A stretch of DNA of 23,604 bases. Source: a virus (taxonomy: Duplodnaviria > Heunggongvirae > Uroviricota > Caudoviricetes). The notes under the pieces were generated by a model. It saw only the letters and a list, made by a program, of their open reading frames with translations. It did not search any database and was not told the DNA's origin. The translations under genes and the position numbers were made by a program. The DNA lies in IMG/VR virus record IMGVR_UViG_2529292985_000014, positions 1 through 23,604 of that record. One strand, 5' to 3'. Below, in pieces: positions 1-18,956 of this stretch (positions are counted from its first letter, which is position 1; every line of letters begins with the position of its first letter).

Positions 1-80
1 TTGCTGTTCCCGTCACCTTGCTAAATTAGTTTTCTAACATATTTTATTAGTTTGATGACGGTATCGGAAGATGCAATAAA

Positions 81-110
81 CAAAAAACCCGCTAACTGGC
101 GGGTTTTTAT
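81..110. terminator. Bidirectional rho-independent terminator closing the leftward accessory operon
   Basis: A-tract 81-87, stem AACCCGC (86-92) pairing with GCGGGTT (99-105), loop TAACTG, then T-tract 104-108. Reads as hairpin plus U-run on both strands. Lies just past the last minus-strand ORF (ends 115). Confidence 0.6.
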
Positions 111-114
111 GCAA

Positions 115-429
115 TTACTGTGTTGCAGCCTGATAAATAAGATACGAGATAAATACAGGTACGATGGCCCATTGCAGCAATGAAAGTAGCCTCATTACTG
201 TTATTGGGGTAACTCCATCCACGTATTGTTTCTCTGACATTTTCCCTAACCAACTAACCGACAACAGTGCCGAGTTTTCACCCAATTCCAGCTCTCTGAG
301 CGCTTCACGGATTAACGGCGCTGTCACAGCCTTAACCGGTGTGCTCAACGTGATACTCCGCGTCCTCCCCGCATCGTCAGCGAACGCCAGACTCACATAA
401 TATTTTTTGCTCAATGTACAAACTCCCAA
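115..429 (-). CDS. Hypothetical small protein with hydrophobic C-terminal segment; last gene of the accessory operon
   Basis: 104-aa ORF in the track. No ATG near the 5' end. A more likely start is TTG at 414-412, overlapping the upstream stop as TTGA (coupling). C-terminus LLSLLQWAIVPVFISYLIY looks like a membrane anchor. Terminator follows. Confidence 0.4.
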   Translation of the reverse strand: MGVCTLSKKYYVSLAFADDAGRTRSITLSTPVKAVTAPLIREALRELELGENSALLSVSWLGKMSEKQYVDGVTPITVMRLLSLLQWAIVPVFISYLIYQAATQ

Positions 430-611
430 TCATCAGCGCTTGCACTTTCCGGGGTTATGTGAACCTTATCGCCAGTAACAATATTGCGAGCTTCAAAACT
501 TCCATTGATACGTTTCGAGATCTCAATACATAGAGCCTGCTGCCATGAGCGACGACGAGCGATAGCATTAGTTCCTGCAGGGATAAGTTCTGCCACGTTA
601 AGTAAACGCAA
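411..611 (-). CDS. Hypothetical 66-aa protein
   Basis: ORF with TTG start and GGAG about 9 nt upstream. Sits 14 nt downstream of the VRR-NUC stop. No recognisable motif. Confidence 0.35.
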   Translation of the reverse strand: MRLLNVAELIPAGTNAIARRRSWQQALCIEISKRINGSFEARNIVTGDKVHITPESASADDWEFVH

Positions 612-625
612 AACGATTTCTCCGT

Positions 626-1120
626 TTAATCAAGACAAACATACTCCGTGATAGCTTTTATGGCTTCAGCGGCACTGCGCGCCTCAAAGCAGTAGTAACC
701 GGCTTCTGTGAGGCGCGTCATCCAGACGAGTTGTTCGGGAGTCAGGCGATTTCTCCCATGTTTCATCTCAATGCGCATTCCGTGGTATCCCCCACAAGCA
801 AGGTCTATAGAAAGATCGGGATATCCCTTCTTTTGGCCCTCTGCCACCATTTTTATTGCCGTCCTTATGCCTCGCAGGCCACCGTTTGGAGTGGCGTGAG
901 TATGCTCATACACATAACGCATATTGCGATACATCCAGTCCAGGACGCGAACCTGCTCGTAATGCTCATGGTTCCTTTTGATTAGATCTGGATTTTTCTC
1001 CAGTTCTCTAAGAGCTGCGGCATGTGGGGATGTTTCAGAATATTCACTGCGACGCCTTCTCTTTCGCGCTATTTTTCTAACACACCCATTGATAGTAAAT
1101 ATGCAAAATAATAACAACAA
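626..1120 (-). CDS. VRR-NUC domain (PD-(D/E)xK) nuclease with basic N-terminal extension
   Basis: Translation contains PNGG...GYPDLSIDL...GMRIEMK...RLTPEQLVWMTRLTEAGYY, matching the VRR-NUC pattern (G-x-PDL, E-x-K, LTPEQ..W) as I recall it. Only in-frame starts upstream of the domain are TTG 1120 or 1117, with no Shine-Dalgarno, so the start is uncertain. Confidence 0.55.
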   Translation of the reverse strand: MLLLFCIFTINGCVRKIARKRRRRSEYSETSPHAAALRELEKNPDLIKRNHEHYEQVRVLDWMYRNMRYVYEHTHATPNGGLRGIRTAIKMVAEGQKKGYPDLSIDLACGGYHGMRIEMKHGRNRLTPEQLVWMTRLTEAGYYCFEARSAAEAIKAITEYVCLD

Positions 1121-1144
1121 CGTTAGGTTTGTAGAATAAGAGAG

Positions 1145-1172
1145 ATACTACTCAAGGATCATCTATATGCAA
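1145..1172 (-). promoter_or_regulatory. Candidate sigma70-type promoter upstream of the VRR-NUC gene
   Basis: On the minus strand: TTGCAT, 16-bp spacer, TAGTAT, inside the 144-bp gap between the 84-aa ORF and the VRR-NUC ORF. A 8-bp-stem hairpin GGGTAAAT/ATTTACCC at 1221-1244 precedes it. Prediction by eye only. Confidence 0.2.
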
Positions 1173-1264
1173 CAGGTCGGATGTCCTTTTAAGGTAAAGC
1201 GTGACCTTAATCAACAAGGAGGGTAAATCGCATGGCATTTACCCAACCTGTTATTTTTAAAGGG

Positions 1265-1519
1265 TTATATTTTATCCTGTTCGGATAATTCTTTGATTGT
1301 CTTGTCGATTGCGATCAACCAACCTTCATAGGTTAAATCATCAACAAGTTCTACCAACTTATCATCGGTGTGAGGAAAGTATATCCAGCTCCAGTTCGCA
1401 GGGTTTTCTGCTTTTCGCAGCGTAAAAACCTTCTTGTATCGGTGGAACTCAAGGACATACCCCTTCGATATGGAATATCCCTTTAGGTCTTCGACCGTAA
1501 ACCTACGATTCTTTCGCAT
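1265..1519 (-). CDS. Hypothetical 84-aa protein (occupies the position I recall for P1 lxc)
   Basis: ATG start 2 nt after the stop of the upstream 144-aa ORF (TAG-CC-ATG), suggesting coupling. No motif recognised. Confidence 0.4.
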   Translation of the reverse strand: MRKNRRFTVEDLKGYSISKGYVLEFHRYKKVFTLRKAENPANWSWIYFPHTDDKLVELVDDLTYEGWLIAIDKTIKELSEQDKI

Positions 1520-1521
1520 GG

Positions 1522-1956
1522 CTACCCCATGATTCGATATTTCTCTACAGACTCGTCGTAACTTGTGTACACGTATGGCTCTGTATCATCGGCATAAGGT
1601 GCGACTTCCAGAGCATGAACAGGATTGTATACCGCGTCATTTTCCAGGCGATCGCTCGAATACAGATGCCCAGCCAAAACCGTAAGCGCCGGGCGACTCA
1701 TTTTGTAGATCTCTGCCACATCGCTATCTACAACTTGTCCAAATGATATGTCGCCGCGCTCCAGCAATAACGTTTTAAGCGCAGGCCACCACGGCCCATA
1801 AAGGTGATAAAGCTGTGGATCTCGTTTCAGCCTTTCCACCATGCCATTCAGATATGCATCCAGAAATGCCTCTTCACTCCTGCCATTGAGCGCCTGCGGC
1901 AAAATGTCCTCAAGGTAGGATTCCGTTGGTTTTACTGTGTCGATCAATGTTGTCAT
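1522..1956 (-). CDS. Hypothetical 144-aa acidic protein immediately downstream of darB (position I recall for P1 ulx)
   Basis: ATG start. Its AGAGG Shine-Dalgarno lies inside a hairpin CGGCCTC-TTTC-GAGGCCG (about 1963-1980) that sits between the darB stop and this start. Acidic, aromatic-rich sequence with no known motif. Confidence 0.45.
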   Translation of the reverse strand: MTTLIDTVKPTESYLEDILPQALNGRSEEAFLDAYLNGMVERLKRDPQLYHLYGPWWPALKTLLLERGDISFGQVVDSDVAEIYKMSRPALTVLAGHLYSSDRLENDAVYNPVHALEVAPYADDTEPYVYTSYDESVEKYRIMG

Positions 1957-1992
1957 TTTAATTCGGCCTCTTTCGAGGCCGCTCCATATCTG

Positions 1993-4900
1993 TTAAGCCG
2001 CCGCTTCAATGATTTTACGCACTTCATCAATTGAATAGCGCGTCGATACCATCCAGGCCGGACGGTCAAAGTCCACATCGGCAACCGGGTTAACTTCGAA
2101 GTTCCAGAAACGCCCACCGATTTTCTTGATGGCATCTTTTGCGTTGCGAATAGATGAAGATCCGGGCATATCTGCAATGAGATAAACAGCACCAGCGTCT
2201 TCACTTACGCTCCACCAGCGACCGCGGACACGTGCTTTGGCGCGAATAGGCTTATCGTTTACCACGATAATGTAATCATCATTTGCTGCCTCGTCAGCCT
2301 TATTCTCAGCAGCATCAGCCTGTTCTTCCCGTTCAGTCTTAGCCGCCGCAAGACGTTCAGCAATCTCTGACTCCGTAGCGCCACTATTTTTAAGCGACAC
2401 AAAGTCATCCCACGTTGCAGATTTCAGAGCATCAGGCAACTCTTCCACATACCCGCCCGCTTTTAAGGCGTTAGCATGGCGTATAGCCATCCCGACAAGA
2501 CGATTCAAGCTATCTGCATCTGCGAAATCATCACGGGTAATGCTTTTATCCTCAAATGCATGAATTAACGCCCCCGCTTTAATCCAGACTGTTGCAGATG
2601 TTTCAAGCGGATTATCGGCATTAGAAATGCTTAGTTGCGCACTGTAAACTGACTGATCTGCCAACGAGGCAAGTGACGCCCAACCATCTGCATCACTTTG
2701 CATTTTGTACTGATCAAACAGCGCATCACGCCATGCATTTAGCGCCATGCGTGTTTTCTCAATTTTGGTTGTGATTTTGGACGTTCGCAGTTGTTCGAAC
2801 ATCTGCGAAATCTCCGAACCATTGGTGAAGGCTTTCATGCGCCCCTGGAAATCGCGGAAAGAAAGCACGCCTCGCCAGTACGTTTCCAGGCCTTCTCCAT
2901 TTGGCTTGCGGAACAAGCTGCGGACATCTTCCTGAGTCACTTTTTCAAGTGAACGCCCGGAGAGATCGCGCCCTGCCATCCAGCCATCGAACGCCTTGAC
3001 CACATCATCCATAGTGGCCTGAGCGCCCCATGCCTCCATACCTTGCTCATAATCGAAGCCAAACAATGCACGGAGAAAACCTTCTGCCTCTGAAATACGA
3101 AGTGGGTTATCACCTGTCTGGATTTTCGCGACTTCGCGTTTTAATGCTTCGTCGTTTACATCAGGATAAATCCATTGTTCAGGTGCTATCTCGTCACTTC
3201 CAGATGCGCTAATTTTTTGACCAATCATCCCGCCATAGGTAAAGGCCATTTGAATCTGACCATTGGCGTTACGATAAGCCCAATAGTTTACATCCGGTGC
3301 TCCTTGCCAACCGCCACGATCTCTCCCAGTTACCCGCATAACACCGCTACGAATAGCGTCATAGAATTGATCGCGAGAAAGAGAGGTTGAAAGCTGGTGG
3401 CTTTGAACACCACGTGCCGCTATTTCTCGTGATTCAGCCACCCCCTCTTCAAATGTTACCGCTTCAACCACTGAGTCAAACGGTAATGTCATGGTTGAGC
3501 CAGGAGAACGAGAGTGGCGACTTGCTCTATCCAGCCAGGCGACGCGGCAGGTGTATTGCGCTTTTTCGCCCTCAATTTGTGTCACGCGTACAATCGCCGT
3601 TGTCTCGTATTCAGCATCAATGACTGCACGGTAGTAACTACCTTTATGCAACAGGATGTTCTTGCCAGTGCGCATATACTCCTGCGGGTTCTGAATAACA
3701 TCGATACTGATATCCAGCACACCAGACTTAATAGCACGCTCCACATCACCACGAGAGCGTTTCATAACAGTATCCGCGTCCTTCGCCCTGGTGATTGCAA
3801 ATCGCAATTCACGCACTCTTTTTTTAGCTTTGCTTAGTGCTGAAAGCGTATATTTCTGTCCGTTTTTGTTGGTGCCGCTCTTAATCAGTCCATCCAGATC
3901 ACTCTGGTATCGTTGCGCCTGCTCCATCGCGCTTTTCAGTTCTGCCTCCATCATGCCGATATCCTTCCCGGCAGCATTCGCCGCTTTCAGGTAGTTATCG
4001 AGAGCATTATTGGCTTCGCGTTGCGCTTTAAGTCGCAGGCGTTCCTCACGTTCTTTCGACTGACGAGCCATAATTGCGCGTCGTTCTTCCGGATTTGCCG
4101 CCAGCATAATGGCGCGCTCATCAGCGTCATCCGCATCACCATTGGCGATCTCTGACATATCGGAGGTCATCACCATCTTGATCCAGTCTTTCTTACGTTT
4201 AAGCGTATCCAGACGGAAGTCATCGAATGTGCCTTTGCCACAATAATAGTGAACATTAACCTTCTCTTGCGGAGAACCTACGCGCGCACCGCGCCCATTT
4301 CGTTGGTCGATACTGGCAGGAGTCCAGGGTAGTGTCAGGTGGTGAATATCGGTCGTTCCAATATGCAGGTTGATACCTACTTCGGCTTTCTTGTTACAGA
4401 TAATGATTTGCGTGCGCCCTTCGTTATAGTCGGCAGCAATACCTTCCATCCCCTCAAGGCCAGCATCATTTTTAGCAGAGAGATAATCCTCATATTGGGC
4501 CAGTTTACTGTAGTAGGTTTCCCATGCGCCTTCTTTGTATTCACCGTCTTTGTTTGGCGTCGGTTCGGTCGGTTTTTTGACCTTTTTCAGCTTAACACCA
4601 CCAGCCTGGCTAACAGTCGTAGCATTGATAATGCCTATCTCCTGCTCTGGCATTTGCAACGCACTGGCAATGATGCGACGTAGTTTCTGGTGCTGGGCTT
4701 TCTCGTCGATAAAGATAATTTGCTTACCGTTCTTAAGCCCTTCACGAAGGTTCTCGATAAGTGCGGCATACTTAGGCGGGATCGGGTGTGACACCTGTTT
4801 CATGTCGATGCCTGCATCAGCAATTGCCTTGAGTATTTCAGCCTCCAGGTCAATGCTGGCACGCAATTCGACGTGATTTGGATGCTCACTAAATGTTGTA

Positions 4901-7900
4901 GCTACAACCTTGCTGGTACGGGTACTGACCAGGCCTCCGATCGCATCCTCCTCTGCTTCTTCTGCATCGTCTGCCGCTTTCCCACCAGCCACTTTTGGTA
5001 GGTTATTAGCTATAGACTTCACCTGTTCAGTAAGTTCTACAGGGAACTGGAATGTGATAGCGCTGGCGTAAAGATCCGGGTCGATAGCGACCTTATCCAT
5101 GTCGCGAATGATAGAGAAAATGAAATCATCCGGTTTCCCGCGAGTGATATTGCCTTCATCATCGACAGTGACGTCATCACCACGACTTAACTCCTGCGCG
5201 CGTTTACGAAGCTCTTCATAAGCTGCTTGCTGCTCTGGAGTCATTGGGATCTGCAAGGTGTTTTCGACGATATCCGGGATTTTTACCGTTGCACCAACAT
5301 CGGAAGCCGTTTTAAGCGTTGTCCAGCGGTGGAAAATGCCACGCAGACCATCAAGGTTCTGGAAGCCCACCAGCCCCTGTTTCTCTTCCACTTCGCCAGA
5401 AATTTTCTGGACCTGAACAGTGGCTGTTTTACCGAACACTCGCACAAAGTCGTCAGGGGTAATAATCCCCATGTGCATCCACTCGTGCTGAGGGATCACC
5501 GTTGACAGCATGTTGAAGGCGTCAATAGGGCTATTAACCAGCGGAGTTGCTGTCAGCATTACGACGCCGCGCCCATTGTGACGTTTCATCATGTACGCAG
5601 CTTTTACAGCCATGTCACGGGCCATTTTGGATACCGCCGGATTAGGTAAATATGCCAGTTGCCCCGCTTCACGCCCGGCACCAAAGGAGTTGCGGTAGTT
5701 ATGCCCTTCGTCGGCAATTACGCTATCGAAGTTCATATCCTCAAAGTACGGGATATTCTGCTTCTTCGCTGTACCGGTATTCGCGGCCTGGTCCTTAATC
5801 TTGTTCTTCTTCTGCGCATCACGGTGCTTGCCTGACGCCAGGTCAAGACGCCCCATTTCGGCGGCATTAAAGACAGCCTGCTGTGAGTTTTCTCCGATGG
5901 TTTCATCGCGCAACGGGATAGATGCGAACTGCTCTTTTGTCATGATGACCGTTCGCCAGTTCGACGATGGGATCATGTTCATGCGTTGAGCGATAACGGC
6001 ACTGGCGGATTCTTTAACAACATTACGGGTGATCGGATTGCCGTCGTTATCAAGTCGCGGGGTGCCGTCCTGGTCGAGCACTGGGGCAGTCTGAATATTT
6101 CCGTCACCATCGCGCACTTCGTCCAGACCGATAAACATCATATTGGCGAAGGCATCTGCACTGTAGAAGCTCTGTGCCTCGTGATACCAGTTCTGGTATA
6201 CGGCCTTTGGAACAACGATACAGGTACGTTTGGTTCGCCCGGTTTCAAAGTTATAGGCTTCCAGTGCCAGCGCGGTCGTCGTTTTACCCAAACCAGTTCC
6301 GAATCCCATAATCCCGCGCCCATCTTCCGACAGACGACGAACTTCTTCGTTCTGGTAAGAAAGCGGTATACGTTTCCCGCTGATGCCTTCAAGCCCCAGG
6401 GGTGCGTCTGAATGGGTAAATGGAATATAACCGTTAAAGGCGTCGTTATAATCGCGGGCGATCTGGTCTGCCTGCGGGTGAGTTCTTAACCAGTCGTTAA
6501 AACTCGTCTCAAGCTGGGCGATTTTGTCCAGGTACTCGTTAGCGTTCTGTCCGCGCGGTTTAACACCGTTCAGGTAGTTCTCAAGCTGATTCAGGAAGCC
6601 ATCTTTGTTATTCGCTTTCTTGAACTCGTTCCCGTTTTTGCCGTTTACGGTTCGTAGCTGGTAGCCAGTAAATACCCCGTCCTTACCTTCGTAATCGTCC
6701 GGGGATACCAGAATGCCGTTCTCAACCTTAAGGTCGGGTTCTGTATACTTAAACTCGTCATAGCCCTGCTCTGCCAGGAACTCTTTTATCAGGCGGCGAT
6801 CCAACCACCGTGCGTTAAGGTTTACCGTGACTTTGTTCAGCGGTGTAAACGTGCGTTTCTCTTCGATTTTTGAAAGCTGGCGCTCAAAGTTGGCCTTCCG
6901 CTCTCCTGTGGACGCGTCTCGCCAGCCCACCAGCAGTGCCACTTTTGATTTAATATCACCGCTAGTGGCACGGCCCATCGGTAGCAGGCAACCATATCCA
7001 TCAATAGCGATATCGTCGAATTTCGCCAGGTATTCCTGTGCTTGATCGTCGTCTTCTGGCAGTTCGCCTTTAAACGCCTCGCGGAAGTCATCAAGATTGA
7101 TAGGATTAAGGGCAACATCGCTGAAAAGGTGTGTCACAACCTGTTCCGGACGAGTGAAATCAATACCAGCAGCCCCTTTGCTAACATCAAGCCGTCCGGA
7201 CAGCAGATCGGATGCTTCACCGTCCTGATTGACGTTCCCGGTGAATGTCAGCCAGTTCTTCGCGCCCGCTTCGGTAATGTCGTTTAGCTTAATGGCGTGT
7301 GGTGGGCCATATTTAGCAACTTCGGCAGCCGTCAGACGTGCGGCATCAGCCAGTTCATCATCGACGTTTTCACCAAGGTTACGCTTATCCAGCGCTTTAT
7401 TGATAAGTTGCCCGATCAGCGCACCGCGCATAATGCGCTCACGGTCTTTTTCGCGTTGTTTCCCAGCAAAGCGAATCATTGCCGCTACTTCATCACTGAT
7501 AACCGATGGATAGTCGGAAGCGATCGCGGATATCTGCCCCCATGACAGAGCCAGAATGCCGTTTGTTGATTGGAACGTTGTTTGCAGATCACCGAATGTC
7601 GAAACACCATATCGGCTTACATCAAGTACGGAGGATTTGGTTGTCGCATCTTTAACCCATTGCAGGCCATCAAACTCGTGCCAGATGCCACCTACAAGGC
7701 GCTTGTCTCCTACTTTGGCGCCCTGCCATGCCTGAGTAGTTACGCCAAGCAAATCCCAATTAATGCGGCTTTCAAAGCGGCGCGATAGAGCGGTTTTCAT
7801 CGACTCATTGGATACACGACCGTCCTTTTTCACCACCAGAGTATTGCGGAAGCTGGTACGTTCCATGTCGCCGTAAACAAATCGCTTCCCTTCGGTTGTA

Positions 7901-8910
7901 AACCATTTTCCTTTGAGGAAGGTATCCCAAAGGACGTTTGCCGATTTGAGTGTTGAATCATCCGTGTCGGGGATCATCTCCAGGAAGGTTTCCGGGTGTT
8001 TACGCAATACCCATACGTCCACCACGGTATCTGTACCGGATTCGCTGAACGTACCGGAAGGCATACGATGTGCGCCCAAAAATTCCGCTTTACGGCTGAC
8101 TTTATCGCGCAATTTTTTATATTTCGTACCATCGGTCATGCCATTCGGCACCACCAATACGATAAGCCCACCAGGCTTAACCTTGTCGATCGTGCGCAGC
8201 ACAAAGTAATTGCCAACGTTCTTCTCGTTTGCATATGCCGGATCAAGCCCGGCGACACCGGAACGCCCTTCACCAAACGGTACGTTACCAACAGCGTGAT
8301 CATACATTGCGTCTTTCGCCGCCAGCGCCTCAAACGCCCCGATATTCACATCGTCTTCCGGGTGCAAAAGCTGGTTTATTCGACCGGAAATCGGAGACAG
8401 TTCGGCGCTGGTCATTATCATGCCCTGTCGTTTTGTCTCCTGGAAAATACCTGTGCCCGCTGATGGTTCCAGTACGTGCCCGCCATCAATACCGTAGTCA
8501 GCAAACAGATCCCATATACCTTCAGCCATAAACTGTGGCGTGTAGTATTCGTATTGGCTGCCCTCACCATCTGTCAGGCCGCCTTCACCGGTATACCCGG
8601 CAAGAATCTGACGCTGTTCGTCAGTTAATTTCGCCCCATCGAAGCCGGGCGGAAGGGAATTAAGAAGCTCTACTGCGGCGTTGTTTGCTGCCCGCCGTGT
8701 TTTTTGAATGCTGACACCATCGACTTTCTTAACGCCAAAGGTCGCAACAGCACGTAATTTATGCAACCGACTAACAATTTCAATCAGTTCGCCTAAGCTG
8801 GAGGCTTCACTGATTGAATGAAGTAGTTTATCCAAAGGATTACCCCCTCTAAACCGTAAAAAATCCGCTATGCGGTACGGTTGAGAGGGTATGGAGAATG
8901 TTATTTTCAC
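1993..8910 (-). CDS. darB: DarB-like giant protein: N6-adenine DNA methyltransferase domain plus SF2 helicase core plus long C-terminal region
   Basis: 2305-aa uninterrupted ORF. MTase motif I VLEPSAGTGIF and motif IV GNVPFG (NPPF-type), roughly nt 7900-8560. Helicase Walker A GFGTGLGKTTT (about nt 6270), motif II VIADEGH (about nt 5710), motif III LTATP, motif VI QRNGRGARVG (about nt 4290). The track start is GTG 8910 with no SD. TTG at 8835-8833 is preceded by AGAGGGGG at 7 nt and may be the real start. Confidence 0.8.
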   Translation of the reverse strand: MKITFSIPSQPYRIADFLRFRGGNPLDKLLHSISEASSLGELIEIVSRLHKLRAVATFGVKKVDGVSIQKTRRAANNAAVELLNSLPPGFDGAKLTDEQRQILAGYTGEGGLTDGEGSQYEYYTPQFMAEGIWDLFADYGIDGGHVLEPSAGTGIFQETKRQGMIMTSAELSPISGRINQLLHPEDDVNIGAFEALAAKDAMYDHAVGNVPFGEGRSGVAGLDPAYANEKNVGNYFVLRTIDKVKPGGLIVLVVPNGMTDGTKYKKLRDKVSRKAEFLGAHRMPSGTFSESGTDTVVDVWVLRKHPETFLEMIPDTDDSTLKSANVLWDTFLKGKWFTTEGKRFVYGDMERTSFRNTLVVKKDGRVSNESMKTALSRRFESRINWDLLGVTTQAWQGAKVGDKRLVGGIWHEFDGLQWVKDATTKSSVLDVSRYGVSTFGDLQTTFQSTNGILALSWGQISAIASDYPSVISDEVAAMIRFAGKQREKDRERIMRGALIGQLINKALDKRNLGENVDDELADAARLTAAEVAKYGPPHAIKLNDITEAGAKNWLTFTGNVNQDGEASDLLSGRLDVSKGAAGIDFTRPEQVVTHLFSDVALNPINLDDFREAFKGELPEDDDQAQEYLAKFDDIAIDGYGCLLPMGRATSGDIKSKVALLVGWRDASTGERKANFERQLSKIEEKRTFTPLNKVTVNLNARWLDRRLIKEFLAEQGYDEFKYTEPDLKVENGILVSPDDYEGKDGVFTGYQLRTVNGKNGNEFKKANNKDGFLNQLENYLNGVKPRGQNANEYLDKIAQLETSFNDWLRTHPQADQIARDYNDAFNGYIPFTHSDAPLGLEGISGKRIPLSYQNEEVRRLSEDGRGIMGFGTGLGKTTTALALEAYNFETGRTKRTCIVVPKAVYQNWYHEAQSFYSADAFANMMFIGLDEVRDGDGNIQTAPVLDQDGTPRLDNDGNPITRNVVKESASAVIAQRMNMIPSSNWRTVIMTKEQFASIPLRDETIGENSQQAVFNAAEMGRLDLASGKHRDAQKKNKIKDQAANTGTAKKQNIPYFEDMNFDSVIADEGHNYRNSFGAGREAGQLAYLPNPAVSKMARDMAVKAAYMMKRHNGRGVVMLTATPLVNSPIDAFNMLSTVIPQHEWMHMGIITPDDFVRVFGKTATVQVQKISGEVEEKQGLVGFQNLDGLRGIFHRWTTLKTASDVGATVKIPDIVENTLQIPMTPEQQAAYEELRKRAQELSRGDDVTVDDEGNITRGKPDDFIFSIIRDMDKVAIDPDLYASAITFQFPVELTEQVKSIANNLPKVAGGKAADDAEEAEEDAIGGLVSTRTSKVVATTFSEHPNHVELRASIDLEAEILKAIADAGIDMKQVSHPIPPKYAALIENLREGLKNGKQIIFIDEKAQHQKLRRIIASALQMPEQEIGIINATTVSQAGGVKLKKVKKPTEPTPNKDGEYKEGAWETYYSKLAQYEDYLSAKNDAGLEGMEGIAADYNEGRTQIIICNKKAEVGINLHIGTTDIHHLTLPWTPASIDQRNGRGARVGSPQEKVNVHYYCGKGTFDDFRLDTLKRKKDWIKMVMTSDMSEIANGDADDADERAIMLAANPEERRAIMARQSKEREERLRLKAQREANNALDNYLKAANAAGKDIGMMEAELKSAMEQAQRYQSDLDGLIKSGTNKNGQKYTLSALSKAKKRVRELRFAITRAKDADTVMKRSRGDVERAIKSGVLDISIDVIQNPQEYMRTGKNILLHKGSYYRAVIDAEYETTAIVRVTQIEGEKAQYTCRVAWLDRASRHSRSPGSTMTLPFDSVVEAVTFEEGVAESREIAARGVQSHQLSTSLSRDQFYDAIRSGVMRVTGRDRGGWQGAPDVNYWAYRNANGQIQMAFTYGGMIGQKISASGSDEIAPEQWIYPDVNDEALKREVAKIQTGDNPLRISEAEGFLRALFGFDYEQGMEAWGAQATMDDVVKAFDGWMAGRDLSGRSLEKVTQEDVRSLFRKPNGEGLETYWRGVLSFRDFQGRMKAFTNGSEISQMFEQLRTSKITTKIEKTRMALNAWRDALFDQYKMQSDADGWASLASLADQSVYSAQLSISNADNPLETSATVWIKAGALIHAFEDKSITRDDFADADSLNRLVGMAIRHANALKAGGYVEELPDALKSATWDDFVSLKNSGATESEIAERLAAAKTEREEQADAAENKADEAANDDYIIVVNDKPIRAKARVRGRWWSVSEDAGAVYLIADMPGSSSIRNAKDAIKKIGGRFWNFEVNPVADVDFDRPAWMVSTRYSIDEVRKIIEAAA

Positions 8911-8985
8911 GGGGACGATACTACCGTCAAAATCACATACCCCCCATAGTTTGCCTGCTTATTAACCAATGACCGGAAAAAAAAT

Positions 8986-9471
8986 ATGGCAAACATTGAA
9001 CCTCGCTGGCTAATTGAAGCACGTAAGCACATTGGCCTGACTGAAATAAAAGGCGCTAAACACAACCCTGAAATCGTTCAGTTTTGGCGCGACATCAAGC
9101 GCGGCGGAATTAAAGACGATGAAACGCCGTGGTGCGCAGCATTTGTCGGTGCAATGCTGGAACGTGTAGGCATCCGCTCAACAAGATTTGAGTCGGCAAA
9201 ATCCTATCTGGATTGGGGCGCGAAATTAGATACACCGGCATACGGATGTATCGTTGTATTTACCCGCGTAGGCGGTGGGCACGTAGGCTTCGTTGTCGGA
9301 CGCCGCGCCAATGGCGATCTGCTTGTCCTGGGTGGGAACCAGGGGGATGCGGTTAATATTCGCGCATTCCCAACATCAAGAGTGTCTGGCTATCGCTGGC
9401 CTGCTGGCGAACCACGCAATACCGCTCTGTTACCAGTCGGAGACGCAGCAACCTCAACTAATGAGGCATGA
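8986..9471 (+). CDS. CHAP / NlpC-P60-like Cys-His hydrolase (TIGR02594-like); candidate peptidoglycan hydrolase
   Basis: 161-aa ORF with ATG start. Candidate catalytic Cys in TPWCAAFVGAM and His in GGGHVGFVVG, spaced as in CHAP-type amidases/peptidases (from memory). Only clearly coding plus-strand gene left of cin, divergent from darB. Confidence 0.55.
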   Translation: MANIEPRWLIEARKHIGLTEIKGAKHNPEIVQFWRDIKRGGIKDDETPWCAAFVGAMLERVGIRSTRFESAKSYLDWGAKLDTPAYGCIVVFTRVGGGHVGFVVGRRANGDLLVLGGNQGDAVNIRAFPTSRVSGYRWPAGEPRNTALLPVGDAATSTNEA

Positions 9472-9495
9472 AAAAAGCCCCGACCAGGCCGGGGC
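9471..9495. terminator. Hairpin terminator, functional mainly on the minus strand
   Basis: A-tract 9471-9476, stem GCCCCG (9477-9482) pairing with CGGGGC (9490-9495). The minus strand gets hairpin plus U6. The plus strand has no T-run after the hairpin. Confidence 0.5.
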
Positions 9496-9573
9496 ATCAC
9501 GCTTCAAGTCACGATCCAATCATTACCGACTATATCAGCCGTCGATAAATCAACTTCCCGGATCTGGAGTCCA

Positions 9574-11374: not shown

Positions 11375-12373
11375 TTATGCCCGTCGTGAAACGAAGAGTA
11401 ATGGGGTAGTATTTTTGCTCTCCTTCGGCGATAACTCCGGCTCTTTCTTGCCTGATATCGGCAAGCCATAAGTCGCATTTGCCCCCAGTGATTCAAGCAT
11501 CGCAGCCACTATGCGAGCATCATCTTCAGACTGCATACGGCAGAGCGCCCGGCGCTGTTCTGCGCTAATAAAAACAGGCATTTCCTGGATAGCGTCACGC
11601 AAAATCCGGCGGCATTGCTTTGCATTTTCCCCCTGGCTTTCCATCATCGCTGTTTGAGTGCGCAGCTTATCTCGAAGCTGTATGTTTTCCACTTCAAGGA
11701 GCATCAATTCTGACTCAAGGGCTTCACGCTGTGCTGACTCGAAAATAGCCTGCTGATTCTTCATTGCTGAAAAGTGGTGAACAAGATCCGTAGCCGCGTT
11801 ATCGGTAAAACCTTGTTCGATAAGTGCCGCATGAATAGCCGCGTCGCGCTCTTCTGCTGATTCCAGCATCAGGCTTTTCTTGTCCAGACTGATATAGTTA
11901 GGCACAGTTACGTAATCAAAGCCGTGAAAAGACTTTACCAGGGATACAGATGAATCTGGGCCAGATGTAGCCCATGACCAACCACCCGCACCAGAATTAA
12001 TCATTCCCTGTACAATACGCCCGGTGTCTGTATCCAGTATTTCCTGCGTATGGGTAACAATGCCGTTGTCGTCAATCGAAATGTCGATAGTCCTGTTTGA
12101 TGGCACGTTCTCCAATACAACAGGTTTCCCATCAACCATCACAACAGAGACTTCCGGCAGGTTCAGGCTTTTCGTTTTGTTATAGTGCATCGCCCGGCGA
12201 CCATGACCGTAATAGCCATACATCTCACCAAGTGCGATACGCTCTTTTGTTTCTGGCGAGTTGAATGTGTCTCGCACCGACTGAATAACGTAATTTCGGT
12301 TGTTCTGCGGTGTGTGTTTGCGGATTTTCTCTACCAGGGAGAAGCGATCCGTAACAGTGTTCAGTGATTGCAT
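11375..12373 (-). CDS. Putative prohead protease / scaffold-like protein (possibly P1 Pro-like)
   Basis: 332-aa ORF: N-terminal globular part with Gly/Ser-rich GAGGWSWATSG, central coiled coil ALESELMLLEVENIQLRDKLRTQ, short C-terminal tail. The layout resembles prohead protease-scaffold fusions. Assignment is by architecture and neighbourhood only. Confidence 0.3.
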   Translation of the reverse strand: MQSLNTVTDRFSLVEKIRKHTPQNNRNYVIQSVRDTFNSPETKERIALGEMYGYYGHGRRAMHYNKTKSLNLPEVSVVMVDGKPVVLENVPSNRTIDISIDDNGIVTHTQEILDTDTGRIVQGMINSGAGGWSWATSGPDSSVSLVKSFHGFDYVTVPNYISLDKKSLMLESAEERDAAIHAALIEQGFTDNAATDLVHHFSAMKNQQAIFESAQREALESELMLLEVENIQLRDKLRTQTAMMESQGENAKQCRRILRDAIQEMPVFISAEQRRALCRMQSEDDARIVAAMLESLGANATYGLPISGKKEPELSPKESKNTTPLLFVSRRA

Positions 12374-12386
12374 TATTTCCCTCCGG

Positions 12387-14069
12387 TTAATTGCTCATCA
12401 CAAATTTTGCAAAGTTTATTAACTGTTCTGGCGTCCAGTTTTCCGGATCGTCACCGGACGACAACGGCGCGGATTCGTACATACCATGCTCGTTGTTTTG
12501 CTCTGATTCATTCGCCTTAAACTCTTTGATCATGGTGTTGAGAGTGTCATCGTCGATGTGCAACTGCTCGGTAAACAGATAACGCATAAACGCGTCACTA
12601 CCAGCCAGTTTCGGGTTGTTCTGGATCTGGTCCATAATTTGGGAGATGACAGCAACAAAGTTGGCGCGTGCATCCAGTTCCCGGTTTTCCTCTTCCTGAA
12701 TAGCAGTGTTCATTGAGTTGAATTGCACGTCATAAGGGCGGTTTTTTTCGGTGTAAACCTTGCCGTATTTATAAGCGAGGTGAATGTCCAGAAGCTGATA
12801 AATAGTTCGCTGGGCGGCCTGTCTGATCCAGTTCGCACGCAATGCAGCCTGGATAGCAGTTTGCTGCCAGCCGCCTTCTCCAAGCCCTCCGCTCATCTGA
12901 TCAGCCCAGCCAAGCATTGTTGCGTCAATGCCGAGGCTTGCAGCAAGCTGCCGGAGGTGAAACATAACGTCTTCGATACCACTGATATCTGCGGGTATGG
13001 ATTGCGTATCAATGGTGATGCCGTTCTTCCCGTCTCCCATAACAGGTATCAGATGGTTAAGCACAGTTGGAATAGCGTTGGCATTAATCGACCTTTGCGC
13101 CACCAGGTCACTATGACGCTTCAATGCCTGGCTGACGCCACGCGTATAGTTCGCCGCATTAACCGGGTCAAGTGTGTTCGTCGTAAGAGCAATCAGGCGG
13201 TCAATTTTGGCTGCATTATTTCGCGTTGATTTCAGCGCGGCGAGCGAAGCACATAAATTAAGGTAAGGTTCATAGCTGTATTCCAGGAATGAAGTTCCGT
13301 AATTCTGCGTCTCCATTAACGGCTTATCAGCTTGATCACTTAACAGTGAGTACCCTTTTGTGCCGTAGCTAACCGGAATAACTTTATGCTGTGGCGTCCA
13401 ATAGGGATTTTTCATGGAAACCAGATTCCACGGTTCGGTTATTACTCTGCGCAAACTATGCGTATCCAGGATGTAATCACCACTGAATCCAACCAGCTGG
13501 CTACCGCGATAAAATTCCTGGACGAAATGTGGCAGAGTGTAATAACTGGACTCAATGCCTGTTATCCCCCTGCCCTGTTCAGCATAAGGTCGGACATAAG
13601 ACACCCCAAAGATCGCCATGATCATGGCCCATGAAGGAAGTCCGTCATTAATCATCGCCCCCAAATCAGCGGTTAACTCTTCACATCTACTTACTGCCTC
13701 GGCATCGGAACCATCCTTTGGCGAAAGGATGAATGCCTGTCCGTTTTTTTTTGAAGGCGCAAGCGCATGTGCAATGTGAATGTTTAAAGCCGTCGAGATA
13801 GTCGGGCTTTTAGCCATCGTTTCCAGGATGTTGTACTTTTGCAGGCGCTCGCCGGGCAGTTCAGCGGATAAAGAAATTGAATCTGCCTCACTCGTCATGC
13901 CATCGCTATTGCTCCCCAGGATGCCTGGACGTAAAGCAGACAGGCCGGAACGAGCAACGACACTATGTCCGCTCGTAAAAACGACCGGATCGGCGGGCGT
14001 AACATCACCACCGTTGAAGGCTTTCTTCAATGCTGACAGAAAGCCTTTGTTTTTGTCTTTCGTTGCCAT
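12387..14069 (-). CDS. Putative portal-like virion structural protein
   Basis: 560-aa ORF with ATG start preceded by GGTGA. Size and acidic C-terminus fit a portal protein. It directly precedes the protease-like gene. No diagnostic motif verified. Confidence 0.3.
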   Translation of the reverse strand: MATKDKNKGFLSALKKAFNGGDVTPADPVVFTSGHSVVARSGLSALRPGILGSNSDGMTSEADSISLSAELPGERLQKYNILETMAKSPTISTALNIHIAHALAPSKKNGQAFILSPKDGSDAEAVSRCEELTADLGAMINDGLPSWAMIMAIFGVSYVRPYAEQGRGITGIESSYYTLPHFVQEFYRGSQLVGFSGDYILDTHSLRRVITEPWNLVSMKNPYWTPQHKVIPVSYGTKGYSLLSDQADKPLMETQNYGTSFLEYSYEPYLNLCASLAALKSTRNNAAKIDRLIALTTNTLDPVNAANYTRGVSQALKRHSDLVAQRSINANAIPTVLNHLIPVMGDGKNGITIDTQSIPADISGIEDVMFHLRQLAASLGIDATMLGWADQMSGGLGEGGWQQTAIQAALRANWIRQAAQRTIYQLLDIHLAYKYGKVYTEKNRPYDVQFNSMNTAIQEEENRELDARANFVAVISQIMDQIQNNPKLAGSDAFMRYLFTEQLHIDDDTLNTMIKEFKANESEQNNEHGMYESAPLSSGDDPENWTPEQLINFAKFVMSN

Positions 14070-14133: not shown

Positions 14134-15531
14134 TTAGTTTTCTGTACGGCAATTATTTGGAACTGTAGAATTTTCAAACATAGCAAAGTTCAGACCTTTC
14201 CCTTCGCCAAATTCACCCTCAATTTCATCAGATACAGCAGACAAAATACTACGCAGATCAACATCGCCACCGCCGAACATATCGCCCAATGCCTGTTGTT
14301 TATGAGTCAGCTCGTCGTTGATTTTTTGCGCCATTTTTTTGAATGCTGCCCCCATACGCTTCGCACTGCGATTATTTGCTACGATGAATAGCGCCAATGC
14401 CTCAGCTTCCGGTGTACTGTCGCCGAATAACCCCCTTTGGGCGATCACTTCTTCAACGGCCTGACCGTTGTCTTTGGCTTCACGTACAAGATTAATTGCT
14501 TCCTGGAGTGCTGCTATCGCCTGTGTATCCAGGCCATTAACCTGCTCTATACCGTCCACTAAGCCTGTTACTGCGTCATGGTGAGCGTCGCCAGACAGCG
14601 ACTGCATTTGCGCAAAATCGCTGGCTGCCGTATTTAATGCGATCAGGATATTACGCATTTCCGGATCTGGCTCTTCCGACACCAGCCGAACAAGCCTTTC
14701 ATCCTTGTACGCTTTGGCAAAAATTGCATTCTGGATGCGATCGATAAGCTGTTTCGTGGGACGCCCATCGGCAGTAAGCAAGCCTGCCGTCGCTGTATCG
14801 CCAATTTCGCGCAAAAACGCACGAATAAACGCATCATTGGACCGCGCCAGCAGGTTTCCATCATCTGAAGGATTAAATAGCGCCATGACGCTCTCAGTGA
14901 GAAATTGCGCATCCGCATACGCTTTTTCACTTGCTGCCATCTCTTGCAGATCACTAATGTTTGAATCGCGGGCAAATTGAGCGCGGTCTACATCTGTGAG
15001 TCTTTCTCGCACCAGTACGGGCATAGACATTTGCGAAATTTCGTCAGGATTCAGACCAAACTCTTTCGCATGGTCGATCAGGTACTGGCGATACTCATCC
15101 GCCTGTCCTTGCTCATAGGCACGCCAGATACCCATACTCCTTCCGTTGCCGGATTCAACAACGTTGTCCGGACCAACTATCGGCGCTCCATGGCTGCTCA
15201 TACCGGAATCCGTTAATTGTGCCGGGCGTAAATCGGAGGCAATACGGTTAACCTGGAGTTTGCTGGATAGCCGGGTACGATCTCGTGGTTGGAGTTCTTC
15301 CGGGAAGGCCGGGTTAATCGTACCGTCAAGGTTGTTCGAAATGATTAGACTGCTGGCATCAACGACCTTAAAAGCCGTCTTTACCTCTGCGCCTTTGCTG
15401 GTGACTACGTAGCTACTTCGCCCCATGCGTGTTTCTTTCCTCTCTAATGAAGAAACCAGAGCAATGACGCTGTTAATATCTGCGGCCTCGGAAAGCGCAG
15501 AAGTAACTGATTTGTTCAAAATACACTCCAA
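14134..15531 (-). CDS. Hypothetical alpha-helical protein, possibly a virion internal protein (downstream of the DdrA-like gene)
   Basis: 465-aa ORF. Track start is TTG 15531. An alternative TTG at 15519-15517 has GGAG 6 nt upstream. No motif recognised. Confidence 0.35.
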   Translation of the reverse strand: MECILNKSVTSALSEAADINSVIALVSSLERKETRMGRSSYVVTSKGAEVKTAFKVVDASSLIISNNLDGTINPAFPEELQPRDRTRLSSKLQVNRIASDLRPAQLTDSGMSSHGAPIVGPDNVVESGNGRSMGIWRAYEQGQADEYRQYLIDHAKEFGLNPDEISQMSMPVLVRERLTDVDRAQFARDSNISDLQEMAASEKAYADAQFLTESVMALFNPSDDGNLLARSNDAFIRAFLREIGDTATAGLLTADGRPTKQLIDRIQNAIFAKAYKDERLVRLVSEEPDPEMRNILIALNTAASDFAQMQSLSGDAHHDAVTGLVDGIEQVNGLDTQAIAALQEAINLVREAKDNGQAVEEVIAQRGLFGDSTPEAEALALFIVANNRSAKRMGAAFKKMAQKINDELTHKQQALGDMFGGGDVDLRSILSAVSDEIEGEFGEGKGLNFAMFENSTVPNNCRTEN

Positions 15532-15588
15532 CTATAGAGAAAGCTGTGAGTGTAAAAAGAGTGTGATTTATGTGAGAACAGAGAAGTG

Positions 15589-15611
15589 AAAGGGGGATTC
15601 CACCCCCTTTT
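15589..15611. terminator. GC hairpin AAAGGGGG-ATTCCA-CCCCCTTT between the DdrA-like and 465-aa genes
   Basis: Read directly. Followed by TTTTG on the plus strand and TTTC on the minus strand. A TATAGT -10-like hexamer lies just downstream on the minus strand. Could be an attenuator or partial terminator. Confidence 0.3.
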
Positions 15612-15613
15612 GA

Positions 15614-15982
15614 TTACCCGGCATAACCGTTGGCTTTCACCCAGCTTATGGTCTGTTCTTTAGCCTGCTCCAACGTAAGGAACTCGCCAACATAGTTTGA
15701 GATCCCACGCAGCGCATCAATAAATTCCATTTGTGTGGACTTTGTGAACACACCGCCCAGGAAGTCAGTCACTATCTTAGGGACTTCATCTACAACAGGA
15801 TCAGTCTGTTGTTGCGGTTCCGCTGCCGGTTGCGCGGCAGTCCCCAGGCCCAATTTCAGCATCACATCAACAATCTGCTTACCAATGGTGACGCGTTGCA
15901 ATACTGGCGCAGTTTTCTGCGCCTGCATTAGATCTGATAGCTCTTTACCTAATTTCAGGCGGTCTAAAACAGAGATGGTCAT
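15614..15982 (-). CDS. DdrA-like small protein encoded directly downstream of the DarA-like gene
   Basis: 122-aa ORF. Its ATG overlaps the upstream stop (TAATG), indicating coupling. Assignment by position only. Confidence 0.4.
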   Translation of the reverse strand: MTISVLDRLKLGKELSDLMQAQKTAPVLQRVTIGKQIVDVMLKLGLGTAAQPAAEPQQQTDPVVDEVPKIVTDFLGGVFTKSTQMEFIDALRGISNYVGEFLTLEQAKEQTISWVKANGYAG

Positions 15983-17907: not shown

Positions 17908-18520
17908 GCTCATCCTCCAGGCGCGCGATTTCTTCTTTAAGAGCACGTGTCTTAGCTACTTCCTGAGACAAGGCAGCTTTAACGTTACCCGTATCTTGCA
18001 TTACTTTGTCTGACTTGCTCTGGAGTTTAGACAGTTTGTCGTTAGCATTAGCGATATCTTCACGGAGTGCATCACGTGATTCTTTCGCTTCAGCTAATTT
18101 CTGAGCGTTGGATTTAACTCCCTGCCGCTTCTTATTTTCGTCATCAATATTTTTTGCTGCACGAGCAAGTTTTCGAGCTAATGACTTCTGGAAAGAAGTT
18201 GCTCCGCGATTAAATAAAGCCGCAAGAGATTGCCCCAAAGCCGACATTGTTTTTACTGGCTTGAACGGTACTGTTTTACCATTCAGTTTGATCCCAGATA
18301 TATCACCGGTATCGTTAACCTGAACTTCCATTGTCTGTTCATCAAGACCAATAAGGGTAAACGTGCGCGTCATGATCCCATCTTTCTTCCTGCCATTACT
18401 TGCAGGGATCACCCTCGCTATCTTGTAACCACCTTTGCTGATTTCTTTGACGAGTTTTGCCAGCCCCTTTTCGTTTAACTCATCATAATTAAGAAGAACA
18501 TAATTATTCTTATTTGACAT
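17900..18520 (-). CDS. hdf: Hdf-like protein (homolog of a DarA fragment)
   Basis: Likely start ATG 18520 with AAGGAGG 5 nt upstream (the track GTG 18535 is less likely). Segment SALGQSLAALFNRGATSFQKS resembles DarA-like LSQVCQALSNLIERNSEKF, and both are followed by a coiled coil. Confidence 0.45.
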   Translation of the reverse strand: MSNKNNYVLLNYDELNEKGLAKLVKEISKGGYKIARVIPASNGRKKDGIMTRTFTLIGLDEQTMEVQVNDTGDISGIKLNGKTVPFKPVKTMSALGQSLAALFNRGATSFQKSLARKLARAAKNIDDENKKRQGVKSNAQKLAEAKESRDALREDIANANDKLSKLQSKSDKVMQDTGNVKAALSQEVAKTRALKEEIARLEDEHD

Positions 18521-18956
18521 CCCAGCCTCCTTCACGCTTTTCGATCGTAAACTGGCGCTCTATGCAGTCATTGATAGGGAAAATGCGATAAAGCGGATTC
18601 AGTCGGCAGTTACCGTTAGTCAATGTGACTTTCAGATCCCACTTCGTTGGCTCAAGATATTTCGTATCGATGAGCAAATACTCTTCTCTCTCACCGCGTT
18701 TTGAGGCGTCAACTGGTCGTGTTTTCCCTGAAATAACCACAGATGGATTTTTCAGGTCTTGCAACCAATATTCGATTTGAGCATTGCTGACCCAGCTTCG
18801 CTTAACACGTAGCGAAACAGGAAATGCTATAGCAGATTCTTTCACTACAGCGTCACCAATACTCAAAATCTCAACACTCTTGCGACGAAAAATGAAACGG
18901 TCAATGATGGCAACAAATGCCATGATAAAAATGAAATAATTCCCAAAGTTACCCAT
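18510..18956 (-). CDS. LydB-like membrane-anchored protein (candidate antiholin or lysis regulator)
   Basis: 148-aa ORF. ATG overlaps the holin stop (TAATG). N-terminal hydrophobic segment NYFIFIMAFVAIIDRFIF followed by a soluble domain. Confidence 0.45.
   Translation of the reverse strand: MGNFGNYFIFIMAFVAIIDRFIFRRKSVEILSIGDAVVKESAIAFPVSLRVKRSWVSNAQIEYWLQDLKNPSVVISGKTRPVDASKRGEREEYLLIDTKYLEPTKWDLKVTLTNGNCRLNPLYRIFPINDCIERQFTIEKREGGWDVK

Follow-up and report, generated by a model that had tools for sequence, protein, structure and literature searches.

The darB locus and its neighbors

The window, that is, the whole 23,604-nt stretch of DNA analyzed here, carries on its minus strand a single very large gene, darB, followed at close distance by ulx and accompanied farther along by the remaining genes of a Dar anti-restriction system. 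The genes and start signals are as follows.

1993-8910, minus strand: mechanical darB ORF, GTG start, 2305 aa, without internal stop
1993-8835, minus strand: most probable darB coding sequence (2280 aa), from a TTG start to a TAA stop at 1993-1995
8843-8849, minus strand: Shine-Dalgarno-like GAGGGGG, read from the sequence, 7 nt 5′ of the TTG start
1522-1956, minus strand: ulx, 37 nt downstream of darB (phrog_1629, "Ulx-like anti-restriction", E 1.8e-59)
14134-18535, minus strand: rest of the Dar system as a whole, in the gene order of phage D6
14134-15531, minus strand: DdrB-like gene (PHROG match; phrog_2299, the family matching the D6 ddrB-like gene)
15614-15982, minus strand: ddrA (PHROG match, DdrA-like family)
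15982-17946, minus strand: darA (phrog_1926, the family matching the D6 darA-like gene)
17900-18535, minus strand: hdf (PHROG match, Hdf-like family)

The single 2305-aa frame given in a preliminary description of this DNA is indeed uninterrupted from its GTG to its stop, but translation probably begins at the TTG at 8835, 25 codons inside that frame. The annotations of phage D6 and of plasmids (the latter by PGAP) begin the gene at the same TTG, which aligns with Met1 of P1 DarB. That description had also named a frameshift or fusion artefact as what would undo the reading; none materialized. Intact darB genes of 2278-2280 aa are read in D6 and four plasmids, 113 plasmid records span at least 80% of the C-terminal 2.26 kb of the gene, and dN/dS stays well below 1 throughout. 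We thus reject a fusion artefact.

The protein is 87% identical in amino acids, and its gene 83% in nucleotides, to gp15 of D6, which is annotated as similar to P1 gene darB. Its residues 23-1962 align with residues 1-1927 of P1 DarB at 43% identity (BLASTP, ~1940 aa, E = 0), which supplies the alignment that the preliminary description had called for. In addition, phrog_1685 is a full-length match, and the P1-type phrog_11801 also matches. Because these identities to D6 gp15 and P1 DarB come together with all the Dar partners (Ulx, DdrB, DdrA, DarA, and Hdf) in the window, "DarB-like" is the correct name, and the DarB architecture proposed earlier stands. Ulx is the partner of DarB in P1, and the hdf-darA-ddrA-ddrB genes, the portal gene and pro are arranged in the P1/D6 order. 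The window is a D6-like phage-plasmid of the P1 family, and its darB is an ordinary, already known gene rather than part of a new kind of system. DarB relatives lie on contigs of ~80-100 kb in many Enterobacterales and in Vibrio, and a distant relative whose tail is only 22% identical still has ulx paired with its darB and DarA/DdrB genes around it. Three EcoKI sites occur in the window, equal to chance and without sign of avoidance. A sigma-70 promoter scan of the window gave a count below chance and therefore carries little weight.

Domains up to the helicase

From its N-terminus through the helicase, the protein comprises the following elements.

8746-8835, minus strand: N-terminal 30 residues, MDKLLHSISEASSLGELIEIVSRLHKLRAV as compared with MNKLSIGVFRCSSVSEILKYIRAITSHRAP in P1, matching in position the P1 DarB capsid-targeting sequence
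8536-8598, minus strand: GYTGEGG, the GxGG of an LPD36-type N-terminal domain, and EYYTP, the TP motif capping the methyltransferase (both motifs as defined in PMC5512222)
7906-8553, minus strand: gamma-class N6-adenine methyltransferase domain, with motif I EPSAGTG at 8449-8469 and motif IV GNVPFG at 8272-8289
6376-7905, minus strand: spacer of ~510 aa between methyltransferase and helicase, without family assignment, 28-43% identical to P1 DarB
4093-6375, minus strand: SNF2-type SF2 translocase, with GLGKT at 6280-6300, DEGH at 5701-5712, TAT at 5542-5556 and QRNGRGAR at 4282-4305
4210-4251, minus strand: conserved post-helicase block HYYCGKGTFDDFRL, inside the SNF2 translocase region

Every methyltransferase and helicase motif reported earlier was found at its place: in GTG numbering, EPSAGTG at 148, NVPF at 209, GLGKT at 873, DEGH at 1067, TAT at 1120, and QRNGRGAR at 1536. 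With EPSAGTG, the NPPY-like motif IV GNVPFG, EYYTP, and GYTGEGG all present, methyltransferase activity is predicted, and the Pfam N6_Mtase score of 20.1 bits falls marginally below the cut-off of 20.4. C-terminal to this domain stand the SF2 helicase motifs I, II, III, and VI; SNF2-rel_dom scores 48.3 bits (gathering cut-off 24.9) and Helicase_C 23.7 (cut-off 23.5), and ResIII likewise exceeds its gathering score. Pfam assigned no family to the spacer (GTG-numbered residues 371-870), and Pfam searches of the protein returned no nuclease domain.

The C-terminal tail

Some 730 C-terminal residues had been described earlier as lacking any recognizable motif beyond a coiled coil, and the last 752 aa accordingly gave no Pfam match. 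Structure prediction, which had been proposed as a check, yielded a confident AlphaFold2 (AF2) fold with a mean pLDDT of 86.1 for the 752-aa tail and 78.8 for the terminal domain modeled alone. Four elements can be delineated.

3727-4092, minus strand: three-helix antiparallel coiled-coil-like bundle, residues 1582-1703, AF2 pLDDT above 90, net charge +11
3457-3684, minus strand: small beta-barrel, residues 1718-1793, Tudor/KOW/SH3-like in the model
2287-3156, minus strand: acidic helical region, residues 1894-2183, the most divergent part of the protein
1996-2280, minus strand: terminal alpha/beta domain of ~95 aa, residues 2186-2280, conserved across the DarB family

The coiled coil noted earlier is real: three long helices appear in the model, and the only matches of a PDB profile search were coiled coils such as Rad50. 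Alignments with DrmD-type SNF2 proteins extend to about residue 1673 and thus cover the first part of this bundle. For the barrel, Foldseek returned Tudor, KOW, BAH, and Sgf29 matches at probabilities of 0.9-1.0 but with E above 0.1, their placement on the barrel being inferred from the aligned length. The terminal domain is marked by conserved N, D, and K residues and an invariant W (consensus ..D..GK.G.L...K..LK...A.F....G.WW.IP...L), and it is mildly basic in the family (mean charge +2.3; +1 here) within an acidic protein.

Other searches of the tail were largely silent. Foldseek against the PDB with the 752-aa model gave nothing at E ≤0.001, and PDB profile searches from an 18-sequence tail alignment and a 39-sequence terminal-domain alignment returned coiled-coil noise or nothing. 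Pfam, NCBIfam, PHROG, and PADLOC produced just the whole-length DarB PHROGs and the DrmD-type helicase overlap. No similarity to known anti-restriction folds or DNA mimics was found, and a word-indexed homologue search, the family-alignment query included, recovered only fragments and three P1-type pieces.

An exhaustive HMMER search with the last 752 aa against 1.84 billion representative proteins was more productive. It returned 83 matches; all 42 of those with at least 1900 aa are DarB-sized (2010-2480 aa), and the remainder are shorter pieces. DarB family members carry 566-922 aa beyond helicase motif VI, conserved tail blocks are colinear among ~40 DarB-like proteins of 2000-2480 aa, and the terminal domain recurs in three alignments. 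The ~750 aa past motif VI are, as modeled, a folded extension common to the DarB family. The colinear family alignments and the shared terminal domain rule out that unrelated sequence has taken the place of the P1 tail in the last 343 aa.

Divergence, selection, and recombination

The tail is far more divergent than the enzymatic core, at 58-84% identity to D6 (core ~97%) and 14-25% to P1 (core ~55%). Its helical region at residues 1894-2183 is 58-75% identical to D6 and 14-23% to P1. Nevertheless, the tail is under purifying selection, with a dN/dS of 0.10-0.22 as compared with 0.01-0.08 in the core.

The gene is also a mosaic. Its first ~80 codons match the D6-type backbone, whereas the gene body, including the tail, belongs to another allele: from about nt 7700 to 2000, identity to D6 is 63-88% but to plasmid NZ_CP091837 99-100%. 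As read from these identities, the darB body was acquired by recombination from another allele, independently of ulx. Among the PLSDB plasmid records the window allele is uncommon; five records match it at 99% identity or more, and 110 lie at 60-80% in the tail with a backbone of ~92%. Co-variation of the tail with Ulx, which would have hinted at contact between them, was rejected upon finding a D6-type ulx paired with a non-D6 darB body.

What the tail may do

Taken together, the locus is very probably the darB of a D6-like phage-plasmid of the P1 family, encoding a large protein that is packed in the phage head and defends phage DNA against restriction. In P1, and in P1 only, DarB is known to travel inside the virion, to leave it together with the DNA and to protect in cis against EcoB/EcoK (PMC9024508, PMC12707154). 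About 40 copies reside in each P1 head and are believed to enter the cell together with the DNA, DarB being the last to enter the capsid in a stepwise Dar series, by means of an N-terminal signal of at most 30 residues. Subsequently, the SNF2-type motor would move DarB along the incoming double-stranded DNA, and the fused N6-adenine methyltransferase module would then modify type I sites or block access to them. The mechanism of DarB is still called undefined in PMC11109961, in which darB on a plasmid is reported to alleviate EcoKI restriction even after mutation of its catalytic residues (data not shown there), an effect credited to the darB DNA, with its Chi and EcoKI site, and not to the protein.

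Where does the tail fit in this sequence of events? The preliminary description had proposed it as a candidate capsid-targeting or packaging domain, which we consider improbable. Small deletions among the first 30 residues of P1 DarB abolish packaging, and those residues alone suffice to load TetR-mCherry into capsids (PMC9024508). The N-terminus encoded in the window is colinear with the P1 signal, equal in length up to the FGV.K block, and shares the predicted helix SS[LV].E[LI], with just ~8 of the 30 residues identical and the targeting residues 6-10 differing (IGVFR vs. HSISE). The mosaic agrees with an N-terminal address: the tail is of one allele type, the Ulx, capsid, and Dar genes that accompany it are of another (D6-like), and the N-terminus goes with the backbone. 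On the other side, since packaging of P1 DarB depends on Ulx, DdrB, DarA, and Hdf, surfaces beyond the 30-residue signal could contribute, and since the P1 DarB literature examined describes no C-terminal truncations, the C-terminal region could in principle have an auxiliary packaging role. Our best guess is rather that the tail acts after ejection, as an accessory that helps the motor by binding DNA or a partner, and not as a capsid address. The low positive charge of the terminal domain and the acidity of the protein overall speak against this reading. In this arrangement it would consist, in order, of the post-helicase block and three-helix coiled coil, the Tudor/KOW-like barrel, a fast-diverging helical array, and the terminal alpha/beta domain.

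An alternative, which we regard as possible but rather unlikely, is that the variable C-terminal region is a specificity determinant or effector that contacts host type I HsdR/HsdM or BREX components and undergoes arms-race allele exchange. Its standing as the most divergent part of DarB, the discrete allele classes among plasmids, the recombinational swap of the whole darB body independently of ulx, and a tail dN/dS 2- to 10-fold above that of the core all speak for such a role. However, dN/dS at window scale within the tail denotes purifying selection and dS is saturated, so that the divergence looks old rather than recent or adaptive; the swap spans the whole gene and not the tail alone; and the tail resembles none of the known anti-restriction folds or DNA mimics. 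In a more specific form, put forward just as tentatively, the ~600 residues past the SNF2 module would engage the incoming DNA end or the restriction complex, with the hypervariable helical segment as an exchangeable cassette for evading type I or BREX systems. These residues, including the ~95-aa terminal domain, fall outside the Pfam and PDB copies searched. Far less credible is that the protein is itself a defense enzyme, a type ISP, type III, or DISARM methyltransferase-helicase that excludes other phages. Weak local matches to DrmD, ZorD, DpdE, BrxHII, and type II methyltransferase models point that way, yet they fall far below the family cut-offs and touch helicase or methyltransferase cores only, the Pfam searches show no nuclease domain, and the gene, an ortholog of P1 darB, is surrounded by virion and Dar genes.

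Phage-plasmids of the P1 type are widespread, carry resistance genes and lend themselves to use as delivery vehicles. What this analysis offers for the window is a correct annotation: a complete Dar anti-restriction system with an uncommon darB allele acquired by recombination. The domain map of the tail further shows where to cut in truncation and allele-swap work.

Comparison with known systems

DISARM DrmD and other defense SNF2 helicases align with the protein over the second RecA lobe, the post-helicase block and the first long helix (residues 1468-1674). They differ in having no methyltransferase fusion and no Dar context, and in serving defense as opposed to the counter-defense proposed here. 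The protein does not belong to DrmD: NF038317 reaches 46 bits where its cut-off is 610, the PADLOC matches are local, and the neighbors are phage genes. As for loading, T4 internal proteins with a capsid-targeting sequence, such as IPIII, carry an analogous short N-terminal address for entry into the head and delivery with DNA (PMC9024508); the likeness is one of loading logic, and we claim no sequence relationship.

Closer in architecture is the methyltransferase-helicase dyad described in polyvalent proteins (Iyer et al., 2017, PMC5512222), among them the Bcep22-type "DarB-like antirestriction" proteins. This dyad shares the LPD36-type GxGG domain, the TP motif, the NPPY-like motif IV, and the SNF2-type ATPase. 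Bcep22-type proteins are far larger and multi-domain (the phrog_10089 profile has 4647 positions), their matches are partial, and the tail, in the HMMER search, is seen only in DarB-sized proteins or shorter pieces, unlike in these giants.

P1 DarB (2255 aa) has the same series of N-terminal signal region, LPD36-like domain, gamma-class N6A methyltransferase, spacer, SNF2 helicase, and ~750-aa tail, with ulx downstream in both and a terminal domain that is recognizably common. It differs in its last ~340 residues, which BLAST does not align and which are 14-24% identical in global alignment. Also close is phage D6 gp15 (ASR76325.1, "defense against restriction; similar to P1 gene darB"), at 2278 vs. 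2280 aa, with start, domain order, and neighbors alike and 97-100% identity in the first 400 residues. Beyond these, the two part ways, as the gene body in the window is another allele and its tail just 58-84% identical in amino acids to that of D6.

A single DarB reading frame

The window's ORF listing gives one 2305-aa frame for darB at 1993..8910 on the minus strand, free of internal stops, as the preliminary description had it, and every motif named there is found within the frame:

darB motifs (minus strand; residues counted from the GTG at 8910)
Residue 148: EPSAGTG
Residue 209: NVPF
Residue 873: GLGKT
Residue 1067: DEGH
Residue 1120: TAT
Residue 1536: QRNGRGAR

Twenty-five codons into this frame, at 8835, lies a TTG with GAGGGGG 7 nt upstream; the same start is annotated in relatives, both in phage D6 and by NCBI PGAP, yielding proteins of 2278-2280 aa, and the N-terminus counted from it aligns with Met1 of P1 DarB. 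On these comparisons the start is probably this TTG rather than the GTG at 8910, and residues below are numbered from it (2280 aa; GTG numbers are higher by 25) unless stated otherwise. A sigma-70-like promoter match (TTGACG-16-GAAAAT, 8903-8930, minus strand) overlaps the upstream GTG, in which case the transcript would not include that codon, although promoter-like matches in the region are fewer than chance and the match is therefore weak evidence. A strong hairpin, rich in GC and accompanied by a T-run, occupies 9477-9495 (minus strand). That the frame might be a fusion artefact is ruled out by intact darB genes of 2278-2280 aa in D6 and four plasmids, by 113 plasmid records in which 80% or more of the C-terminal 2.26 kb is covered, and by a dN/dS well under 1 along the whole length.

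The DarB-like assignment is correct and already known. Identity is 87% to D6 gp15, annotated "defense against restriction; similar to P1 gene darB", and 43% to P1 DarB over residues 23-1962 (GTG numbering; E = 0). The protein carries the hallmarks of the DarB-type methyltransferase-helicase dyad described by Iyer et al. (PMC5512222): the GxGG motif of the N-terminal helical domain (GYTGEGG), the TP cap (EYYTP), an NPPY-like motif IV (NVPF) and an SNF2-type ATPase. Among Pfam models, SNF2-rel_dom reaches 48.3 bits (cut-off 24.9), ResIII and Helicase_C also exceed theirs, and N6_Mtase falls slightly below (20.1 against 20.4 bits). The DrmD, ZorD, DpdE and BrxHII models match the helicase or methyltransferase cores only, far under their cut-offs, and a search for a nuclease domain in the protein found none. 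The ~510 aa between methyltransferase and helicase (6376-7905, minus strand) match no Pfam family, like the tail, and share 28-43% identity with P1 DarB.

The C-terminal tail

The last 752 aa (the tail) belong to no Pfam family and, in a PHROG search, match only the whole-length D6-type DarB PHROG. A HMMER search run exhaustively over 1.84 billion representative proteins returned 83 matches, 42 of them at least 1900 aa long and all DarB-sized (2010-2480 aa), the remainder being shorter pieces; the DarB-sized relatives extend 566-922 aa beyond motif VI. Judged from these sequences, the tail is a feature of the DarB family. DrmD-type alignments reach about residue 1673, so that the truly unassigned portion is ~600 aa rather than the ~730 of the earlier view.

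Family alignments of the tail are colinear, with conserved blocks, the terminal domain having been aligned on its own (39 sequences). An AlphaFold2 model of the tail, built from a 49-row alignment, is confident (mean pLDDT 86.1), and the terminal domain modelled separately has the same topology (pLDDT 78.8).

Conserved blocks in the family alignments
Post-helicase block, strongly conserved: YYxGKGSFDxFRLxTLxRKxxW ... N.DA ... LLA.PEE
Tail block: IKRLRP.VE.AI..G.L
Tail block: YPD..D..LK
Tail block: LFG..Y....YG..A
Terminal domain, ~95 aa: ..D..GK.G.L...K..LK...A.F....G.WW.IP...L

Domains in the AlphaFold2 tail model
Residues 1529-1581 (piece 1-53): post-helicase segment
Residues 1582-1703 (piece 54-175): three long helices, net charge +11
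Residues 1718-1793 (piece 190-265): beta-barrel
Residues 1797-1873 (piece 269-345): three short helices and a small sheet
Residues 1894-2183 (piece 366-655): helical array, acidic
Residues 2186-2280 (piece 658-752): alpha/beta domain

Searched against the PDB with Foldseek, the 752-aa model gave no match at E <= 0.001. Tudor, KOW, BAH and Sgf29 barrels recurred with high probability over 60-90 columns, their E values not reaching that threshold; by their size, these matches would belong to the predicted barrel at 1718-1793. PDB sequence profiles returned coiled coils or nothing for the tail and terminal-domain alignments. The tail is folded, family-wide and without annotation in the databases searched, and the domain map, together with the evidence for allele exchange given below, is the useful outcome of the analysis. 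BLAST leaves the last 343 residues unaligned to the P1 record, as if a foreign segment had replaced the P1 tail; this reading is rejected, since a second alignment of the window tail with a P1-type fragment (E 0.005) and the family alignments indicate the same region, strongly diverged.

A mosaic gene in a phage-plasmid

The window matches 862 plasmid records as a whole, mostly from E. coli and non-mobilizable, the best at ~92% identity over ~92% of its length; darB itself is 83% identical to D6 in nucleotides. Gene order is that of D6/P1 (ulx, darB, lysozyme-like ORF, repL, pro, portal, ddrB-like, ddrA, darA, hdf, lydB, lydA, cin, tail fibre), and PHROG scans recover Ulx-like, DdrA-like, Hdf-like and portal proteins together with the families of the D6 darA-like and ddrB-like genes. 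By gene content and order, the window is a P1-family, D6-type phage-plasmid with a complete Dar system.

Several neighbours merit separate mention:

626-1120, minus strand: 164-aa ORF matching a Holliday-junction-resolvase PHROG; its orthologue is a VRR-NUC domain protein in related plasmids and pmgM-like in D6
8986-9471, plus strand, divergent: 161-aa ORF matching the C-terminal lysozyme part of the "baseplate hub subunit and tail lysozyme" PHROG and endolysin PHROGs; relatives are annotated peptidoglycan hydrolase or TIGR02594 family protein
11375-12373, minus strand: ORF with best PHROG label "tail fiber protein", probably wrongly; the D6/P1 orthologue is the head-processing protease Pro
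14134-15531, minus strand: DdrB-like ORF of only 465 aa, aligning with 10-443 of the 995 positions in a PHROG profile; the D6 ddrB-like gene is similarly short
ddrB-portal interval: 64 nt, without room for D6 orf23 and orf24

The tail allele occurs at 99% identity or more in five plasmid records, NZ_CP091837 and one from Shigella dysenteriae among them, and at 60-80% in 110 (74-78% among the matches listed). In a sliding comparison over window positions 1-9500, the darB body (8600-2000) is 99-100% identical to NZ_CP091837, whereas D6 or CP057052 is matched at 94-100% by ulx and everything downstream (2000-1) and by the sequence upstream of darB; these flanks share only 52-79% with NZ_CP091837 and with NZ_CP099330, an E. 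fergusonii plasmid with similar flanks. The first ~80 darB codons follow the backbone (95-100% to D6 and CP057742 versus 77% to NZ_CP091837), and the junctions lie within conserved stretches, one close to the methyltransferase domain and the other at the stop of darB. By this pattern, the darB body was exchanged by homologous recombination inside conserved flanks, while ulx was not and the N-terminus was kept with the capsid and Dar backbone; it is evidence that phage-plasmids trade darB alleles with one another.

Identity to D6 drops from ~97% over residues 1-400 to 58-84% in the tail, and identity to P1 DarB from ~55% to 14-25%. With synonymous sites saturated, dN/dS lies between 0.01 and 0.08 for the enzymatic core and between 0.10 and 0.22 across residues 1650-2250, so the tail is coding and constrained, yet the least constrained part of the protein; no positive selection was seen in darB at this resolution.

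In a scan of one genome per species, relatives lie on ~80-100 kb contigs of Enterobacter, Pantoea, Citrobacter, Rosenbergiella, Serratia, Erwinia, Xenorhabdus and Vibrio, with more remote ones in metagenome-assembled genomes. A distant DarB (tail 22% identical) sits on a 63.7-kb metagenomic contig with a Ulx homologue directly downstream (neighbourhood of 12758-13171; 26% identity, E 6e-20), portal-sized and Pro-sized genes in upstream positions, and ddrB-ParB and DarA_N/C genes nearby, which indicates that the Dar genes move together as a set well beyond Escherichia. The contig also bears a PIN-domain gene pair and a Rep3 replicon.

Mechanism and packaging compared with P1

How DarB works is still regarded as undefined in published work (PMC11109961). 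The SNF2 motor may follow the DNA as it enters, with the methyltransferase module modifying target sites or masking them (cf. PMC5512222), and the tail would act after ejection as an accessory that binds DNA or a partner. We consider it rather improbable that the tail serves as an exchangeable module for specificity or effector function. The DNA of darB, carried on a plasmid, is by itself enough to alleviate EcoKI restriction, an effect that depends on ClpXP and acts through Chi and EcoKI sites, and 11 Chi sites are reported in P1 darB (PMC11109961). Chi (GCTGGTGG) is strongly enriched in the window (7 against 0.67 expected), with six sites within darB (2212-6934), five of those on the coding strand, and one at 19612.

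The proposal that the tail is a capsid-targeting or packaging domain is not supported. An auxiliary packaging role may still exist, since the literature searched reports no C-terminal truncations of DarB. In P1, about 40-45 DarB copies enter each head in a stepwise loading that follows Hdf, DarA and DdrA, and co-ejection of Dar proteins with the DNA is reported. There the signal is N-terminal: deletions inside the first 30 residues abolish packaging, and these residues by themselves send TetR-mCherry into capsids (PMC9024508). The darB mosaic, with its backbone-type N-terminus, is what would be expected if such an N-terminal address must match the cognate head.
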